From: a phage | DNA length: 64,000 nt | Sequence record: PV805638.1 | Strand: one strand, 5' to 3' | Shown: piece by piece, positions 3,453-63,618 of the stretch | How the letters are laid out: the number at the start of each line of letters is the position of its first letter | Numbering within the stretch: position 1 is the first letter of the stretch | Made by a program: the position numbers and the translations under genes | The notes under the pieces: generated by a model | Seen by the model: the letters and a program-made list of their open reading frames with translations, nothing else | Database searches by the model: none | Told to the model about the DNA's origin: nothing

Positions 3453-3634
3453 AACTTACTCTGTCCCAAGCAATTTTCCTTCGCATGGTTCAAGGTGGTT
3501 CTGCCACCAACAACCGTAATAACAAAACCGCACAGTCTCTTAAGAAGCTGGGCTTAGTACAGTTCAATGCTGGTCTTGGGTGGTCATTAACCCCTACCGG
3601 CGTACTTCAACTCAACGAATTAAAAGGTAACTAA
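3449..3634 (+). CDS. Hypothetical protein
   Basis: 61-aa ORF; 4-nt overlap with the upstream gene suggests coupling. Confidence 0.3.
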   Translation: MKLTLSQAIFLRMVQGGSATNNRNNKTAQSLKKLGLVQFNAGLGWSLTPTGVLQLNELKGN

Positions 3635-3961
3635 ATGAAAACTTTAATTGCTGTTGTTCTTGTAGCTCTATCAGTTCTGTCATTCGGTGCTCAGGCATCT
3701 AGTCGTGCAACCTTATTGGAAGCTGCTGCTGATTACAAAGCCAATAATGCAAACTTTGTGAACCAGGGTTACTTCATGGGCATGGTTACTATGGGTGTGG
3801 AAGCAGGAAAGAATTGTGTACCTGACGGTATAAAATTAGGGCACATTTTTGACAGAGTGGCCTCTATTATTCTGTATGACCGAAAGGTTAATGCAGTAAA
3901 AGTACCATCAGACATGGTTCTGTTAGCGATTAATACAGCCTATCCCTGCGTTAAATCTTAA
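3635..3961 (+). CDS. Small secreted/periplasmic protein (signal peptide)
   Basis: N-terminus 'MKTLIAVVLVALSVLSFGAQASS' looks like a Sec signal peptide. Confidence 0.4.
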   Translation: MKTLIAVVLVALSVLSFGAQASSRATLLEAAADYKANNANFVNQGYFMGMVTMGVEAGKNCVPDGIKLGHIFDRVASIILYDRKVNAVKVPSDMVLLAINTAYPCVKS

Positions 3962-3995
3962 TTAGTAATTCCATTAACTTTAGGAGAGTAAGTAA

Positions 3996-5048
3996 ATGGC
4001 GAGCATTGACTCCTTGACTGTATGTAATACACGTCAAGCCCGTAACTTTATTATCCGTGCCTTGCAAGCAGGTAACGTACCGTTCCTGACTTCATCACCG
4101 GGTATGGGTAAGTCTGCAATTATTCGTTCTATTGCAGAAGAATTTGGTATGAAGCTGATTGACCATCGTTTGTCTACTTCTGCCCCGGAAGACTTATCTG
4201 GTCTACCATTCCGTAATGGTGACCGTGCAGAGTTTATCCCTTTCGCTGACTTATTCCCTATCGAGGGTGACGAAGTACCAGAAGGTTATAATGGCTGGCT
4301 CCTGTTCCTTGATGAGTTCAACTCAGCTAAAAAGGAAGTAGTAGCTGCTGCATACAAACTGATTCTAGACCGTATGACCGGACAGAAAAAACTTCACCCT
4401 AATGTGATGATTATCTGTGCCGGTAACAAAGCCACTGACCGAGCCATAGTTAACCCGCTGGGTACTGCAATGCAGTCCCGTGTTGTCCACTTCGAAATGG
4501 AACTCGACTTCGACATCTTTGTTGAAGACGTAATGATTCCTCAAGAATGGGATGAGCGTCTGGTTGCATTCTTACATGCTAACCCTGGTTATCTGCATGA
4601 CTTCGACCCTGCCCACAAGAACAAAACATTCTGTTGCCCTCGTACCTGGGACTTTGTTAACAAAGACCTCAAGAACCGACCAGAAGGTGCTTTGCCTGAT
4701 GAAGATTCTATCTACTATGCTGGACACGTTACTGCCGGTAAAGCTACAGAGTTTGTTCAGTTCACTCAGGTATACAATCGTATGATTACGATTGAGAAGG
4801 TAGTCAAAGACCCATTAGGCTGTGCACTACCGGAAGATAATAACCTGTGTTGGGCTACTGTTAACCATCTGGCTAACAAAACTACTGAAGATAACTTCGC
4901 TGATGTTCTTCAGTACATTGAACGCTTTAAAACGTTCACCCATAAGATTCTGTACTTCCGTACAGTAGGCAAAGCATTACCAGAAATTCAGGCTACCCCT
5001 GAATGGCGTAAGGCTGCTGCCAATATCTCTCGTTACATTCACGGATAA
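3996..5048 (+). CDS. MoxR-like AAA+ ATPase
   Basis: Walker A 'SPGMGKSAII' and Walker B 'LLFLDEFNSA'. Confidence 0.7.
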   Translation: MASIDSLTVCNTRQARNFIIRALQAGNVPFLTSSPGMGKSAIIRSIAEEFGMKLIDHRLSTSAPEDLSGLPFRNGDRAEFIPFADLFPIEGDEVPEGYNGWLLFLDEFNSAKKEVVAAAYKLILDRMTGQKKLHPNVMIICAGNKATDRAIVNPLGTAMQSRVVHFEMELDFDIFVEDVMIPQEWDERLVAFLHANPGYLHDFDPAHKNKTFCCPRTWDFVNKDLKNRPEGALPDEDSIYYAGHVTAGKATEFVQFTQVYNRMITIEKVVKDPLGCALPEDNNLCWATVNHLANKTTEDNFADVLQYIERFKTFTHKILYFRTVGKALPEIQATPEWRKAAANISRYIHG

Positions 5049-5055
5049 TCACAAC

Positions 5056-6231
5056 ATGAACCAGATACCTCAGCACACACTTAGTGATGAACAACTCATG
5101 CGTGAGTATGACCGTATTCAGGCCCAAGCCTTCCTAGGCAAGTCTGCTGCGTTTTTTGGTTCATTGCTGTGTAGTCTTAAGTTCTCATGGAAACGTGAGG
5201 GTTGTCCCACTGCATGTACCGATGGGATAGAACTCCATTTCAACCCTGACTTCTTTATCTGGATGTGCCCTGATGCAAGAGAAACAGTGCTAATGCACGA
5301 ACTCTGGCATGTGGCATATCTGCATGGCATCCGTTGTGGAAGCCGTGACCCGGAAGTCTGGAACCAGGCATGTGACCACTTCATTAACCTTCAGTTAGAA
5401 GAAGATGGTTACAAGTTCACTGGTATCGACGAAGGTATTTGCAAAGACCCTCAATATAAAGGATGGGTCGAAGAAGACATCTACGATGACCTGATGAAGA
5501 ACCCTCAGAAAAGGCAGAAGCCGTCGGGGGGAGCTGGAGCAAGTCTTGCTGGCGACATGAAAGCCCCCTCTTCGGGGCAGTCCCAGGGTGCTGTTGTCAA
5601 CAACGTAGTGCGTGCAATGCAAAGCCAGAAGATGGCTGGTGGAACAATGCCCGGTAAAGGTGCTGGTCGTATGGAAGAGGTTATTACCCAATTCCTTAAA
5701 CCAGTAGTTCCATGGCAGGAAGTTCTGATGAACTTCTTTACCGACATTGATGACACACATTATACGTGGGCCAGACCTAACCGTCGCTTCACTGACGTCT
5801 ATCTACCTTCTCTGGAAGATGATGAAGGACGCTTACGACACTTAGCCTACTTTGAGGATGTATCCGGTTCTATTAGTAGTGCTGACTCTCTGCGTTTTAA
5901 CTCAGAGGTTGCCTACGTTAAGAGCCAGTTCAATCCTAAGAAGATGACCCTAATTACCTTCGACGATATTATCCAAGAAGAAATAGACATCACTGAAGAA
6001 GATACTTTTGAAGAGATTAAGATTACTGGTCGTGGTGGTACAAACCTTGAACCAGTGCGCGAATGGATTATTAAGAATAAACCAACCGCTGCAATCATAT
6101 TCTCCGATATGTATGTTCGTCCAATGGAAGAATTACCATTTGATATCCCTATCATCTGGTGTGTTCTGAATAATCCTAATGCTACCGTACCTTTCGGGGA
6201 GGTAGTTCATATCCCTAAAGGAATGAAATAA
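5056..6231 (+). CDS. VWA-domain protein with N-terminal HExxH metallopeptidase-like motif
   Basis: 'HELWH' HExxH motif and a MIDAS-like 'DVSGSIS' (DxSxS); directly downstream of the AAA ATPase. Confidence 0.6.
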   Translation: MNQIPQHTLSDEQLMREYDRIQAQAFLGKSAAFFGSLLCSLKFSWKREGCPTACTDGIELHFNPDFFIWMCPDARETVLMHELWHVAYLHGIRCGSRDPEVWNQACDHFINLQLEEDGYKFTGIDEGICKDPQYKGWVEEDIYDDLMKNPQKRQKPSGGAGASLAGDMKAPSSGQSQGAVVNNVVRAMQSQKMAGGTMPGKGAGRMEEVITQFLKPVVPWQEVLMNFFTDIDDTHYTWARPNRRFTDVYLPSLEDDEGRLRHLAYFEDVSGSISSADSLRFNSEVAYVKSQFNPKKMTLITFDDIIQEEIDITEEDTFEEIKITGRGGTNLEPVREWIIKNKPTAAIIFSDMYVRPMEELPFDIPIIWCVLNNPNATVPFGEVVHIPKGMK

Positions 6232-6737
6232 TGATTGTTAATGGTAATTCTCTATACCGTTCATCTCAATTGCTGGATGTCCCAGACCGTAAAGTATCCG
6301 AGCATGGTGTAAGCTATGGATTAGGTGAAGCTGGTTATGATATTCGTATCAAACAAGACATTACCTTCTATCGCTTATTTGGATTGATTCCAATGGTGAA
6401 AATCGCTGATGGAAAACAAGTATCACGCCACTTCGGTAAGTTTGCATTGGCTTCAGCAATTGAGAAATTCAACATGTCCCCGTCCTGTGTAGCTATCGTT
6501 CACGATAAGTCCACATGGGCAAGACGTGCATTATCTGTGTTCAATACCGTAATAGAACCAGGATGGAAAGGGTATCTTACCCTCGAACTGGTCTATCATG
6601 GTCGTAAGAAACTGCATATCCCGGCTGGTGCTGGGATAGCTCAAGTATTATTTCATCTGGTTCAAGAGCCTGCTAACTACAATGGCAAGTATCAGAACCA
6701 GGAAAACAAACCAGTTGCTGCAAGAAGCAGCAAATAA
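6231..6737 (+). CDS. dCTP deaminase/dUTPase-fold protein
   Basis: 'GYDIRIK' and overall resemblance to the dCTP deaminase beta-barrel family; ATGA-type overlap with the upstream gene. Confidence 0.45.
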   Translation: MIVNGNSLYRSSQLLDVPDRKVSEHGVSYGLGEAGYDIRIKQDITFYRLFGLIPMVKIADGKQVSRHFGKFALASAIEKFNMSPSCVAIVHDKSTWARRALSVFNTVIEPGWKGYLTLELVYHGRKKLHIPAGAGIAQVLFHLVQEPANYNGKYQNQENKPVAARSSK

Positions 6738-7281: not shown

Positions 7282-7357
7282 CTAACCTAAGCATCATTGT
7301 ATAGTGGTGCTTGTGGAAGTTACTTCCAGCTCATTACTTATCCATCTCCTAATCCAA

Positions 7358-7383
7358 GCCCACCTAACCCGTGGGCTTTTTTA
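7358..7383 (+). terminator. Rho-independent terminator
   Basis: agcccac-ctaaccc-gtgggct hairpin followed by tttttt. Confidence 0.55.
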
Positions 7384-7398
7384 ATTACAGGTACTCTT

Positions 7399-7779
7399 AT
7401 GTCAAACAGACAAAATGGTAAGTCTATCTTATATGGACTGGACTTAAGTAAACTGGAACAAACTGCAATGCTTACTTTAGGTATACATGACCAAGTAGAA
7501 GTGAATGGAATTGGTCCTGATGTTTGTGCAGCAATGCAAGCTGCTATTCAGAAAGGATGGACTAGTAGATCATTTAATGTTTTCCCATACATCCCTCCTG
7601 AACCTCATCTGAAATCTAAGGTAGACAGAATCATAGATAAGTTCTGGCTTAGCCCATGCGGGGATGACATGCATCTTTACCTGGCTCAAATACAAAAGAA
7701 TCCGCGTACTAAAGATGTGTTCAAAGGCAAAAGCACTACCCACCATTACCCTTGGTATAGAAGAGGTAGTAAATACTAA
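7399..7779 (+). CDS. Hypothetical protein
   Basis: The ORF-track start at 7297 lies inside the terminator; the in-frame ATG at 7399 just after it is the more plausible start. Confidence 0.35.
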   Translation: MSNRQNGKSILYGLDLSKLEQTAMLTLGIHDQVEVNGIGPDVCAAMQAAIQKGWTSRSFNVFPYIPPEPHLKSKVDRIIDKFWLSPCGDDMHLYLAQIQKNPRTKDVFKGKSTTHHYPWYRRGSKY

Positions 7780-14929: not shown

Positions 14930-15325
14930 ATGAGTTCTGTATACAGAGTTAATCGCAAAGCAACTGATGAAGACATCATTCGTATGAATGCTGTTGGTCT
15001 GTCCCTCGCAACTATCGCTAAGACGTTAGGGGTTCACCCCACTACGGTTACTCTGCGATTGCGTTCTTTAAACATTGAACCTGCCGACACACGTCGGACG
15101 TTCATGGAGAATGTACTCCGTCCATTACCAACCCATGTGGTAGATTGGCTATCAGAGCAAGTTGGTCCTGCTTATGAGATTCGTTCATATGTAAGGGACT
15201 TGATTCTGGAGGCATATAATAATCGCCACCTTAACCAAGAGAGTGAGCATGACAAGTTCATCCGTTTGTACGCTGGAAAACACACGGCAATGGTTTCTAA
15301 AAGCCGTACCGAATCCGACGAGTAA
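14930..15325 (+). CDS. Helix-turn-helix DNA-binding protein
   Basis: 'GLSLATIAKTLGVHPTTVTLRL' HTH; AGAGGA RBS before the ATG at 14930. The ORF-track GTG at 14900 lies in an upstream hairpin. Confidence 0.45.
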   Translation: MSSVYRVNRKATDEDIIRMNAVGLSLATIAKTLGVHPTTVTLRLRSLNIEPADTRRTFMENVLRPLPTHVVDWLSEQVGPAYEIRSYVRDLILEAYNNRHLNQESEHDKFIRLYAGKHTAMVSKSRTESDE

Positions 15326-15701
15326 GAATATTAGTACCCAGATTGGTTGCCATCTGGAAGAAGTAGCAGAAATGCTAAACGCTATTACCAGTAAAACACC
15401 AGAGCGTGCCTCACAGATCGAGGCACTACGTGCAGCAATTGACCATGTGGGTAATCTGCTTAAAAAAGATAACAATATTGTTATCAAAGACTCAGTAGAA
15501 CTACTGGACTCACTGGCAGATCAGATCGTTACAGCAACTGGCGTCGGTACTTTCCTTGGGATGAATGTCCCTGGAGCATTGGCTGAGGTCAATCGCTCAA
15601 ACTATTCCAAGTTCGAAGATGGAGAACCTATCTTCAACGAGAACAAGAAAGTCATGAAGGGGAAAGATTATACTCCCCCGGATTTAACACCTTACATCTA
15701 A
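15243..15701 (+). CDS. MazG-like nucleotide pyrophosphohydrolase; start uncertain
   Basis: 'HLEEVAEML' and 'ELLDSLADQ' fit the MazG EExxE...ExxD pattern. The only ATG overlaps the upstream gene by about 80 nt. Confidence 0.4.
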   Translation: MSMTSSSVCTLENTRQWFLKAVPNPTSKNISTQIGCHLEEVAEMLNAITSKTPERASQIEALRAAIDHVGNLLKKDNNIVIKDSVELLDSLADQIVTATGVGTFLGMNVPGALAEVNRSNYSKFEDGEPIFNENKKVMKGKDYTPPDLTPYI

Positions 15702-15722
15702 CCCTCTACGGAGGGTTTTTTA
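15702..15722 (+). terminator. Rho-independent terminator
   Basis: ccctc-tacg-gaggg hairpin followed by tttttt. Confidence 0.55.
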
Positions 15723-15734
15723 CTGGAGATTTAA

Positions 15735-17044
15735 ATGTTTTCCAAACCTACCAAAGCCCCATTGAACCAGGGGCAAGAAGCGGTTGCGAAGGAGTTCTTC
15801 GACTTCCTGCTCGACCCTAATGCCACAGAGTTCGGAATCAGTGGACCTGGGGGGACTGGTAAGACATTCCTGATGTCGCACCTAATTGATGACACTATGC
15901 CTGCGTATATGGAAACCTGTTCTCTGATGGGAACCAAGCCTCTGTATAACGAAGTTGTCATGACTGCGACCACGAACAAAGCTGCTGAAGTTCTGGCTCA
16001 AGCTACTGGGCGTCCAACGTCTACCTATCACTCCTTCCAGGGACTGATTGTTAAGAATGACTTTAAGACTGGTGAGGCTAATGTCGTACCGTCTAAGTCA
16101 TTCTCTATTAAGAAGAACAAAATCATCTTCGTAGACGAAGCATCCATGATTGACCGTCAGTTACTTAGGTATGCTCGTGAAGGTACTCACCAGTGCAAAC
16201 TGGTATTCGTAGGCGATGCTTCTCAGCTTCTACCTGTTAAAGAGAGTAAGTCTCCAGTGTACGCAGGTAATATCCCAACACACTATCTGACTGAACAGAT
16301 GCGTACCGATTCACCAGACTCAAAGCGTTGCATCAGCAATTGCGTGATACGGTGGAAGGTAAGACAGGCTTCCTGCCTATTAAATGTATTCCAGGCATTA
16401 TTGACTGGGTGCAAGGGGAAGAGATGGAGAAACTGGTTCTCAGTCACTTCACTCAGCCTACCAATAGCCGTATTGTTGCTTACACCAATGACCAGGTTAT
16501 TAATTACAATAACTACATTCGTGAAGCTAATGGCTACGTAGGTGAATACTCCATTGGTGAACAACTAGTTTCTAACTCAGCTGTTCGCTTGGGCGGGGAA
16601 GACCGTCTGTCTATTGAGCAGGACGTAAAACTCATCGACCAGGATAGTAGTACTCGAATGATTAAGGTTACAGGTGACCTGGAACTGGAAGTCCGTGATA
16701 GTACTCTAGACCTTGGTTATGGTGGTATTGTTAGTGAAGTACCAATTCCTACCGACCCAGACTACTTCAACCGTTTGGTTAAGTGGTTAGGTAAAGAGAA
16801 GAACTGGGAACCTTACTTCCGTCTTAAAGAAACTATTCCAGACCTGCGTGCTACTCATGCATGTACTGTTCATAAATCACAAGGCTCTACTTACGACACA
16901 ATCTTCATTGATGCAGATGACCTCTCAAGCTGTCGCCAACCTGATATGGTTGCCCGTCTGCTTTACGTCGCTGTGTCTCGTGCCCGTAAGCGAGTAGTGT
17001 TCTATGGCAATCTTGCCAGTAAGTACGGTGGCCTAACTTTCTAA
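15735..17044 (+). CDS. Dda/RecD-like SF1 helicase, interrupted by a 1-nt frameshift near 16320-16325
   Basis: Walker A 'GPGGTGKTFLM', Walker B 'IIFVDEASMI' and 'VGDASQLLPV' in frame 0; 'CTVHKSQGSTYDTIFID' and 'VAVSRARKRV' in the overlapping ORF 16328-17044. Frames meet at the A-run 'tcaaagcg'. Confidence 0.6.
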
Positions 17045-17054
17045 GGGAGGGTAT

Positions 17055-17585
17055 ATGCCTCAGATTGGTTCAGCGACTATTGGTCAGGTTGCCAATAGCA
17101 GTGAGATAGTCAAACACCTGTTCTTAGCAGAACTGGTTCGTCTTGATGGTGTGTTAAATGGCATTATTGATAAGAATGATCGTATCAATGGCGTAGACGT
17201 ATCGGCTGGATTCCTTCACCAAGGGGAGTTCTATCAGCGTTCCAATGCTACCAGACCCCCAACCTACGGTGAGCGATTAACGCTTAATCCAGAACTTTGG
17301 CCTGCAATGGACAAGTATCTGAAAGCCTCCAGTCGTCTGATTATGGAAGTACACCTTGTGAACCAGACTGTATATCGACTGGTTCGTGGTTGTATGTCCT
17401 ATCAGGATGTACGTGATGCTCTACCTGAATGTCTGGTAGCACAAGACCAGACTGGTCAGTACAAAGGACTACCACGTACTCGTGAAGCAGCATGGACTCT
17501 TGCTGGTGATGCTATGGCAATCAAACAGTATGAGAAGATTCTTCCTTCTATTGAGTACTATGCAGCTTCACATCTGATCTTCTAA
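17055..17585 (+). CDS. Hypothetical protein
   Basis: 176-aa ORF between helicase and polymerase, GGAGGG RBS. Confidence 0.35.
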   Translation: MPQIGSATIGQVANSSEIVKHLFLAELVRLDGVLNGIIDKNDRINGVDVSAGFLHQGEFYQRSNATRPPTYGERLTLNPELWPAMDKYLKASSRLIMEVHLVNQTVYRLVRGCMSYQDVRDALPECLVAQDQTGQYKGLPRTREAAWTLAGDAMAIKQYEKILPSIEYYAASHLIF

Positions 17586-20476: not shown

Positions 20477-20760
20477 TGACTAAGCTCTCCGGTGGTCTTA
20501 ATAACTACTATGTAGTTTTAATTAAAAATCCCCAACGGAAAGAGCAAGAGCCATATCAAGCAGAGTGTGAGGATATTATCCAAGCACTGGGCATGACCTT
20601 CGATGAAGGTTGTGCCTTTAAAGCTCTATGGCGAAATGCTGCTGCCCGTATGGGTAATGGTAAACCAGGTAACTCTTCGGTGTACGACTCAGAGAAGATT
20701 GTGCATTATGCCAATCGAATATTGAAAAAGGCTTACAATGAAAGTAACCAACAACCATGA
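20476..20760 (+). CDS. Hypothetical protein
   Basis: 94-aa ORF, coupled start. Confidence 0.3.
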   Translation: MTKLSGGLNNYYVVLIKNPQRKEQEPYQAECEDIIQALGMTFDEGCAFKALWRNAAARMGNGKPGNSSVYDSEKIVHYANRILKKAYNESNQQP

Positions 20761-62948: not shown

Positions 62949-63347
62949 ATGAGCATCTACGCTTTTGATATTGATATTACTGGAGTACTCCGTAAACAGG
63001 AACCCTATTACCTTGGGGAACCAGAAGTAGTAAGTAAGTTCACTACCCCGTGGCAAACAGTATTCTTACCTGACTGTGAAGAGTCCCATGAAGTAATTGG
63101 TTCTCTTTTCTTATCCAACCTTCAACTTAACACTGTGATATTGTCTGAACCAAGGGTGTATGACCTTACCTATTATGATGGGTTTAACGAGTTCTTCCCC
63201 GGCATACGCTTCTATAAGATAGATGGTTGGGAATTGATAGCTGACCATAACGTATTTAATAAAACACTTTCCATTTACTTCAGACCTATCCCTAAAGGAA
63301 GGAAAATCAATCATGAAATTCATAATGACTATCCCCAGTTTTGTTGA
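62949..63347 (+). CDS. Small protein, paralog family member 2
   Basis: GGAGG RBS; 'VFLPDCEESHEVIGSLFL' motif. Confidence 0.4.
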   Translation: MSIYAFDIDITGVLRKQEPYYLGEPEVVSKFTTPWQTVFLPDCEESHEVIGSLFLSNLQLNTVILSEPRVYDLTYYDGFNEFFPGIRFYKIDGWELIADHNVFNKTLSIYFRPIPKGRKINHEIHNDYPQFC

Positions 63348-63357
63348 GGGGGAATCT

Positions 63358-63618
63358 ATGTACACAACTGACTTCTCTTTAGAAGAGGTCATGAACAGCA
63401 ACCCCCAGCAAGTAATCCTGGTTCCTACCTTAGAGAATTATCACGAAGTAAGGGGTCACCTCTTCTTAGCAGGCAATGACCGTAAGGTGTATGCATTATC
63501 CCACCTTCTGTCTATACCAACTATAACGCTAATGACCCCATACCGTACATGCTGGTATCCGATGAATACCAATGGGGGAGTCGTTACGAGAATGGTGAAT
63601 ATCATTACTACTATGTAA
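63358..63618 (+). CDS. Small protein, paralog family member 3
   Basis: GGGGG RBS before the internal ATG at 63358; 'ILVPTLENYHEVRGHLFL' motif. Confidence 0.35.
   Translation: MYTTDFSLEEVMNSNPQQVILVPTLENYHEVRGHLFLAGNDRKVYALSHLLSIPTITLMTPYRTCWYPMNTNGGVVTRMVNIITTM

Follow-up and report, generated by a model that had tools for sequence, protein, structure and literature searches.

T4 Dda is an accessory, dispensable helicase. Its solved chain (PDB 3UPU) and those of Deep-Sea Helicase 9 (8JX6) and 9KWF have SF1B motifs I, Ia, II, III, IV, V and VI in common with the gene studied here, of which these Dda-family structures are only distant homologs. In phages of the genus Gamaleyavirus (Schitoviridae), the corresponding gene is gp37 of G7C and N4, which has gp36 upstream and gp38 and the DNA polymerase gene downstream. 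This gene is uninterrupted throughout the group; in G7C, Bas96, ST4 and Mimir124 it is a single coding sequence of 1311 bp, annotated as an ATP-dependent RecD-like or Dda-like helicase. Here, we describe a gene with the same neighbors that, unlike any other member of the group, lacks one A (at 16318) and is read as two overlapping open reading frames (ORFs).

Genomic setting of the helicase gene

The DNA analyzed is a stretch of 64,000 nucleotides (here called the window; all positions refer to it), and its source is a G7C-like coliphage (Gamaleyavirus, Schitoviridae, N4-type). The whole window was collinear with ~6.7 to 71.8 kb of G7C. When 1.6 kb around the helicase was used as a query, 59 phage records matched with 93 to 97% identity, the best being G7C (97%), and across the whole gene the DNA identity to G7C gp37 was 96.7%. 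The gene order at the locus was conserved as well, namely, rIIB, gp35, an NTP pyrophosphohydrolase gene (the gp36 homolog), the helicase gene, gp38 and the DNA polymerase gene. With its high identity and with the order gp36-gp37-gp38-DNA polymerase retained, the segment 15735-17044 reads as the ortholog of G7C and N4 gp37, an ordinary and highly conserved Dda/RecD-like SF1B helicase. The helicase gene as such is of an already known kind and carries a trivial one-base lesion. The features of the locus are collected in Table 1.

Table 1. Positions of features at the helicase locus of the window
Feature	Position	Strand	Remarks
Intrinsic-terminator-like hairpin	15700-15723	+	AACCCTC-tacg-GAGGGTT followed by a T-run; downstream of the gp36 homolog, ahead of the helicase start
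ORF1	15735-16541	+	268 aa: native residues 1-194 (motifs I, Ia, II, III and IV) and an out-of-frame tail of 74 residues; stop codon 16539-16541
Motif I / Walker A	15843-15866	+	GPGGTGKT; read from the sequence
Motif II / Walker B	16128-16148	+	FVDEASM
Motif III	16209-16238	+	VGDASQLLPV
Motif IV	16287-16304	+	LTEQMR; last conserved motif ahead of the break; aligned to Dda-family structures
C-terminal helicase frame	16295-17044	+	Open from 16295; first start TTG at 16328; motifs V and VI; stop codon 17042-17044
Lesion site	16317-16319	+	G-A-C in the window, G-A-A-C in all relatives; one A missing at 16318
A_AAG tetramer	16322-16325	+	Put in frame by the deletion, two codons downstream of it; if tRNA-Lys slipped by -1 here, translation would return to the native frame, with EL changed to DS
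ORF2	16328-17044	+	238 aa; overlaps ORF1
Motif V	16862-16897	+	-1 frame
Motif VI	16961-16996	+	-1 frame

The start codon of the helicase is directly preceded by the terminator-like hairpin, with only a GGAG ribosome-binding site in between. The matching region is annotated as a terminator in PhAPEC5, PhAPEC7 and SP5M, and a search for a sigma-70-like promoter in 15300-17400 found none. In that case, expression of the helicase would require read-through or an N4-type middle promoter that has escaped recognition.

Elsewhere in the window, RNAP2 (the homolog of G7C gp16) was split by an insertion of ~806 bp (420-1224), exactly between ...SDTKQAV and the native MTAFYGSE. This insertion carries an ORF on the plus strand (526-1086, 186 aa) whose product is endonuclease VII/HNH-like (phrog_1035, E = 4e-32), and its junctions, GCCGU/UAACC...AUAAUG/UAUGACU, fit the group I rule, with U ending the 5' exon and G ending the insert. 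A match to Rfam Intron_gpI at 835-1174, in which the P7/P9 core was aligned, stayed below threshold (30.2 bits; gathering score, 50; E = 1.2e-5). None of 56 Escherichia/Shigella Gamaleyavirus records contained the insertion; its nearest DNA relative was an "endonuclease/RNA polymerase" junction in the Achromobacter phages JWAlpha and JWDelta, and it was found at ~90% identity in two independent metagenome contigs (SKEL01003965.1 and SKEF01003253.1), neither of which extends to the helicase. The insertion is likely, from its sequence features, a mobile group I intron with a homing endonuclease. In several metagenomic relatives (at ~3541-6531 of four loci), the DNA polymerase was interrupted by an insertion, either an HNH_3 endonuclease ORF or an unannotated ORF, that leaves two DNA_pol_A ORFs, while the polymerase of the window and of G7C is intact (859 aa). 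Mobile endonuclease insertions in replication and transcription genes seem to be common in the genus. Three free-standing HNH endonuclease genes of G7C, gp24.1, gp41.1 and gp47.1, are missing from the window (~5048-5065, ~20720-20740 and ~26765), which contains, in addition, an extra segment of ~370 bp (7393-7764) with a 160-aa ORF (7297-7779) that had no Pfam match. Its gp41 is a short variant of 94 aa, also observed in two of the relatives' loci.

Two reading frames and the missing base

The signatures of an SF1B Dda/RecD-like helicase, namely, Walker A (GxGKT), Walker B (DExx) and the C-terminal motifs V and VI, were all present at the locus. Their positions agreed with the original prediction, which had placed the Walker A/B motifs in frame 0 and the C-terminal motifs in an overlapping ORF. 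Indeed, motifs V and VI of the C-terminal RecA-like domain, CTVHKSQGSTYD and LYVAVSRARKRV, lie in the -1 frame, and as the sequence is written the two RecA-like domains do not share one uninterrupted frame; they do so only after one A is restored. In Pfam, ORF1 matched AAA_30 (E = 8e-20), AAA_19 and PIF1, and ORF2 matched UvrD_C_2 (E = 7e-15); the ORF2 region also matched RecD and Dda-family chains. When the two ORFs were aligned to the PHROG 325 "Dda-like helicase" profile, residues 1-193 of ORF1 covered positions 462-647 and residues 2-235 of ORF2 covered positions 653-876. Since these profile positions are successive, the two ORFs are consecutive pieces of one protein, which is predicted to be an ATP-dependent 5'-3' DNA helicase. 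The shifted tail of 74 residues at the end of ORF1 had no match among protein clusters, where the coverage of the query was at most 82% and mostly ~74%.

The helicase spans 1310 bp in the window and 1311 bp in every relative. Given that the gene is 93 to 97% identical at the DNA level to intact orthologs, this difference is far beyond chance. Together with the consecutive coverage of PHROG 325, it upholds the claim that a single-base frameshift breaks the gene. The proposed likeness to Dda was also borne out, with the break falling just after motif IV and the solved Dda-family chains (8JX6, 9KWF and 3UPU; E = 1e-13 to 1e-22) running continuously across the break point.

The lesion was located by alignment with 4 and then with 14 relatives. 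The relatives read CCA GAA CTC AAA GC(A) (P-E-L-K-A) and the window reads CCA G-A CTC AAA GC(G); in unspaced form, CCAGAACTCAAAGC in the relatives corresponds to CCAG-ACTCAAAGC in the window, with a single A at 16318. The lost base lies within the GAA Glu codon of the native ...TD(T/S)PELKALHQQ..., just past motif IV (LTEQMR). The original prediction had reconciled the frames by an extra A in the AAA run at 16322-16324. Such a base does restore the frame, giving ...PDSKALHQQ, but the place was wrong: according to the alignment the lost A belongs at 16318, and the true change is AA to A, 4-6 nt upstream of that run.

Once one A was restored, the predicted protein was 436 aa long and differed from G7C gp37 at 5 residues. 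In the gene repaired in this way, the ratio of synonymous to nonsynonymous codon differences from G7C was 20:3 before the break and 16:2 after it, and 10 substitutions were private to the window, compared with a range of 0-18 in the relatives. The low nonsynonymous counts and the ordinary number of private substitutions thus give no sign of pseudogene decay, and the C-terminal frame is, by these counts, under purifying selection essentially up to now. Because this selection was kept in the C-terminal frame, the lesion would be either extremely young or not biological. Two of the private substitutions lie on either side of the deletion and no more than 9 nt from it, 16311 (ACA to TCA, T193S) and 16327 (GCA to GCG, silent); the remaining eight are spaced 30-270 nt apart (p ~0.03 for the clustering near the deletion, by a rough Poisson estimate). 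Either a poor consensus in this region or a mutational event that affected several bases could account for the clustering.

Among the relatives, we observed the deletion nowhere. With an 81-nt query across the site, 60 of 60 phage records were one base longer, and none carried the deletion. Ten metagenome or genome contigs with a gp38 identical to that of the window all encoded a 436-aa helicase, each with exactly one gap relative to the window, and the same single gap was found in each of the 14 aligned loci. The deletion was likewise absent from 12 IMG/VR contigs, in 11 of which the helicase was intact. When ORF1 was compared with 5.8 billion proteins, 119 of the 120 best clusters were single chains of 427-450 aa, and the sole short homolog among them was a fragment on a 1.7-kb contig. 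Exact-protein look-ups found no protein identical to the truncated ORF1, the DNA polymerase or rIIB of the window; exact DNA scans of IMG/VR and JGI metagenomes found no match to the helicase allele of the window, with or without the extra base, and E. coli genomes and plasmids gave no match. The 15-mer that spans the deletion context had 90 matches in IMG/VR, which were rejected as chance, none being a Gamaleyavirus helicase. The comparison with the helicases of related phages that the original prediction had called for thus found all of them uninterrupted at the site, and none of these homologs was naturally split at this point. Judged against these collections, the deletion is private to the window sequence.

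Origin of the missing base

We favor, with modest confidence, the reading that the lost A is a sequencing, assembly or consensus-calling error, that is, an under-call of one base in a short run, rather than a fresh mutation. As the sequence is written, a ribosome would read 194 native and 74 junk residues and would stop at 16541, with motifs V and VI out of reach in the -1 frame; if the record is in error, the actual phage would make a normal 436-aa helicase. An error would agree with the intact 1311-bp, 436-aa gene of every relative and with the lack of pseudogene decay, and the private substitutions at 16311 and 16327, within 9 nt, would fit a locally poor consensus.

The whole window was compared with G7C and every indel was listed, compensated indels in diverged patches being set aside. 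This comparison left three isolated frame-breaking differences, at 16318, 63488 and 26828. The last of these, a 2-nt deletion, was rejected as a lesion, since it is a natural variant common to PhAPEC5 and E20. The difference at 63488 (ORF 63313-63618, plus strand) is a private deletion of one base (GGTTG to GGTG, TT to T) that frameshifts the gp71.1 homolog. The extra T was present in 51 of 51 related records, the downstream, C-terminal 44 aa of the repaired product were identical to those of G7C, and PHROG 11661 (function unknown) matched just residues 1-61 of the broken homolog. Both private deletions, at 16318 and 63488, sit in 2-nt runs of ORFs that are otherwise perfectly conserved, and the presence of this second deletion in the window would speak for an artifact.

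A precedent is offered, by analogy, by Shigella phage pSb-1. In its RefSeq record (NC_023589), the same helicase gene, in the same genus, is broken by private one-base deletions in short runs; there are two of them, at gene positions 222 and 309, unlike that of the window, and the pieces are annotated as the "hypothetical proteins" gp83 and gp84. The record looks error-rich, with a gene count inflated to 103, and in it the virion RNA polymerase is also broken into three coding sequences, while the tape measure, SSB and RNAP2 each occupy two. So many split essential genes are incompatible with a viable phage, and the splits of pSb-1 are thus artifacts. Its isolated one-base indels relative to G7C numbered 17 (14 deletions and 3 insertions), and 14 of the 17 lay in runs of 1-3 nt. 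With this bias toward deletions in short runs, artifactual deletions in the genus carry the signature of the two lesions of the window, at a higher density, and the shared signature would favor an artifact in the window as well. Homopolymer profiling was rejected as a means to tell artifact from mutation; it does not discriminate, since the artifactual deletions of pSb-1 are also found in runs of 1-3 nt.

In contrast to pSb-1, which is clearly error-rich, the 64 kb of the window contain just two lesions of this kind. The window is otherwise clean, and two isolated errors would need a specific cause, which counts against an artifact. Indeed, only 1 of the 313 homopolymers of at least 4 nt that were cleanly comparable with G7C differed in length, and that one (a T-run at 7377) is the common allele. 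Thus, the assembly is not generally error-prone.

The high quality of the rest of the sequence would also suit a real and very recent frameshift, a credible alternative to which we give rather less than even weight. Such a mutation could have been fixed, for example, by laboratory propagation or plaque purification, with the helicase being dispensable in the growth conditions used or the allele being hypomorphic. By analogy with T4, where Dda is dispensable, a real knockout might be tolerated, and the phage has other replication factors, since a primase-type protein (PriCT_1) and an AAA_24 ATPase are among its gene products. In the hypomorphic version, a few ribosomes could slip by -1 at A_AAG and make a 436-aa helicase in which Glu-Leu is changed to Asp-Ser within the poorly conserved linker that follows motif IV. 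The predicted product of this leaky slip is a full-length protein of ~49 kDa with the junction peptide ...TDSPDSKALHQQ..., and the Dda-family structures are variable at the positions that align with the two altered residues.

In E. coli, A_AAG is the minimal -1 shift site and was documented to compensate a nearby -1 frameshift mutation (PMC5009743), a single tRNA-Lys decodes both AAA and AAG (PMC5009743; PMC10861913), and single-base deletions are suppressed in a nonprogrammed manner at 1-10% in aggregate (PMC10861913). Similarly to the E. coli frameshifts that are compensated by A_AAG slippage ("savior" indels), the window has an in-frame A_AAG two codons past the deletion; this likeness is relevant only to a real deletion, and the operation of such a slip here is hypothetical. 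When the 992 distinct one-base deletions of the gene were enumerated, an A_AAG rescue that changes at most two residues was available to 3.3% of them and any A_AAG rescue to 10%. An A_AAG this near the lesion is what the survivorship of a leaky allele would predict, and the small share of deletions so placed (3.3%) counts against an artifact.

Several observations speak against a real mutation. All N4-like phages sampled keep the helicase as one chain, an argument for strong selection, and with no signal of relaxed selection the lesion would have to be extremely young. The second private frameshift, at 63488, would also have to be real; it lies in another conserved ORF, and no -1 slip site was found near it. 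Moreover, a stimulatory element is absent at A_AAG. A search of the literature on the essentiality of N4 gp37 or on helicase frameshifts in G7C-like phages found nothing useful. The more specific proposal that the deletion is real and the helicase hypomorphic, with most ribosomes stopping at 16541 and a few per cent slipping at A_AAG to give functional full-length protein ("savior indel plus compensatory slippage"), seems unlikely to us. Such a hypomorphic allele might have been selected because a lower level of a Dda-like helicase helps the phage, e.g., by evading a host defense that senses it.

We regard it as highly improbable that the helicase is naturally split into two polypeptides or that the site is a phase-variable contingency switch. 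Natural gene splits do occur in the genus, as in RNAP2 of this window and in the DNA polymerase of some relatives, where the insertions bear endonucleases. However, the helicase halves have no intervening sequence, the gene measuring 1310 against 1311 bp with exactly one gap, compared with the 806-bp insertion in RNAP2; a split by a mobile intron or homing endonuclease was rejected, since nothing is inserted. The TTG at 16328 has no Shine-Dalgarno sequence in front of it, and initiation at the first ATG that does have an SD-like sequence (16424) would cost the product 33 residues. Lacking a Shine-Dalgarno sequence for the C-terminal ORF, a two-subunit helicase is unsupported, and short homologs were absent from the 120 best clusters except for the fragment on the 1.7-kb contig. 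Phase variation, which had been proposed as one of three explanations, fared no better: the lesion lies in a 2-nt run (AA beside AAA), a long homopolymer or tandem repeat was not found at the site, and all relatives have the same length there.

Weakest of all, and barely conceivable in our view, is the idea that the phage has evolved programmed -1 frameshifting on the ribosome, or transcriptional slippage, to obtain two helicase products in a set ratio. In its favor, the 0 and -1 frames each hold a long ORF, and A_AAG lies where the two overlap. However, the two-frame layout occurred in none of more than 80 relatives (60 phage records, 10 metagenome or genome contigs and 12 IMG/VR contigs), the shift site exists only through the deletion, and transcriptional slippage would need a longer run than AAA. 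No X_XXY_YYZ heptamer was found between 16295, after the -1-frame stop at 16292-16294, and 16541; the only tetramers in this overlap (16295-16541) were AAAG, AAAT, GGGG and AAAC, with A_AAG being unique within the rescue window. The predicted RNA fold of 16300-16400 was no better than that of shuffled sequences (MFE z = -1.44), the site had no inverted repeats and no Rfam match even at E <= 1, and no SD-like sequence was read upstream of 16322. With the two-frame layout missing from all of these relatives, programmed frameshifting can in practice be excluded. Thus, two of the three proposed explanations, programmed frameshifting and phase variation, fall away; what is left is an error of sequencing or assembly, or else a real mutation of very recent date.

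Implications for annotation and helicase biology

In annotation, the two ORFs should be merged into a single helicase gene whose frameshift needs to be checked or repaired; they should not be entered as two proteins or as a case of recoding. Even if real, the deletion would reveal no new mechanism. If it is confirmed, it would provide a small natural test of the dispensability of a Dda-like helicase in N4-like phages and would also test how well nonprogrammed A_AAG slippage rescues a frameshift in a phage gene.
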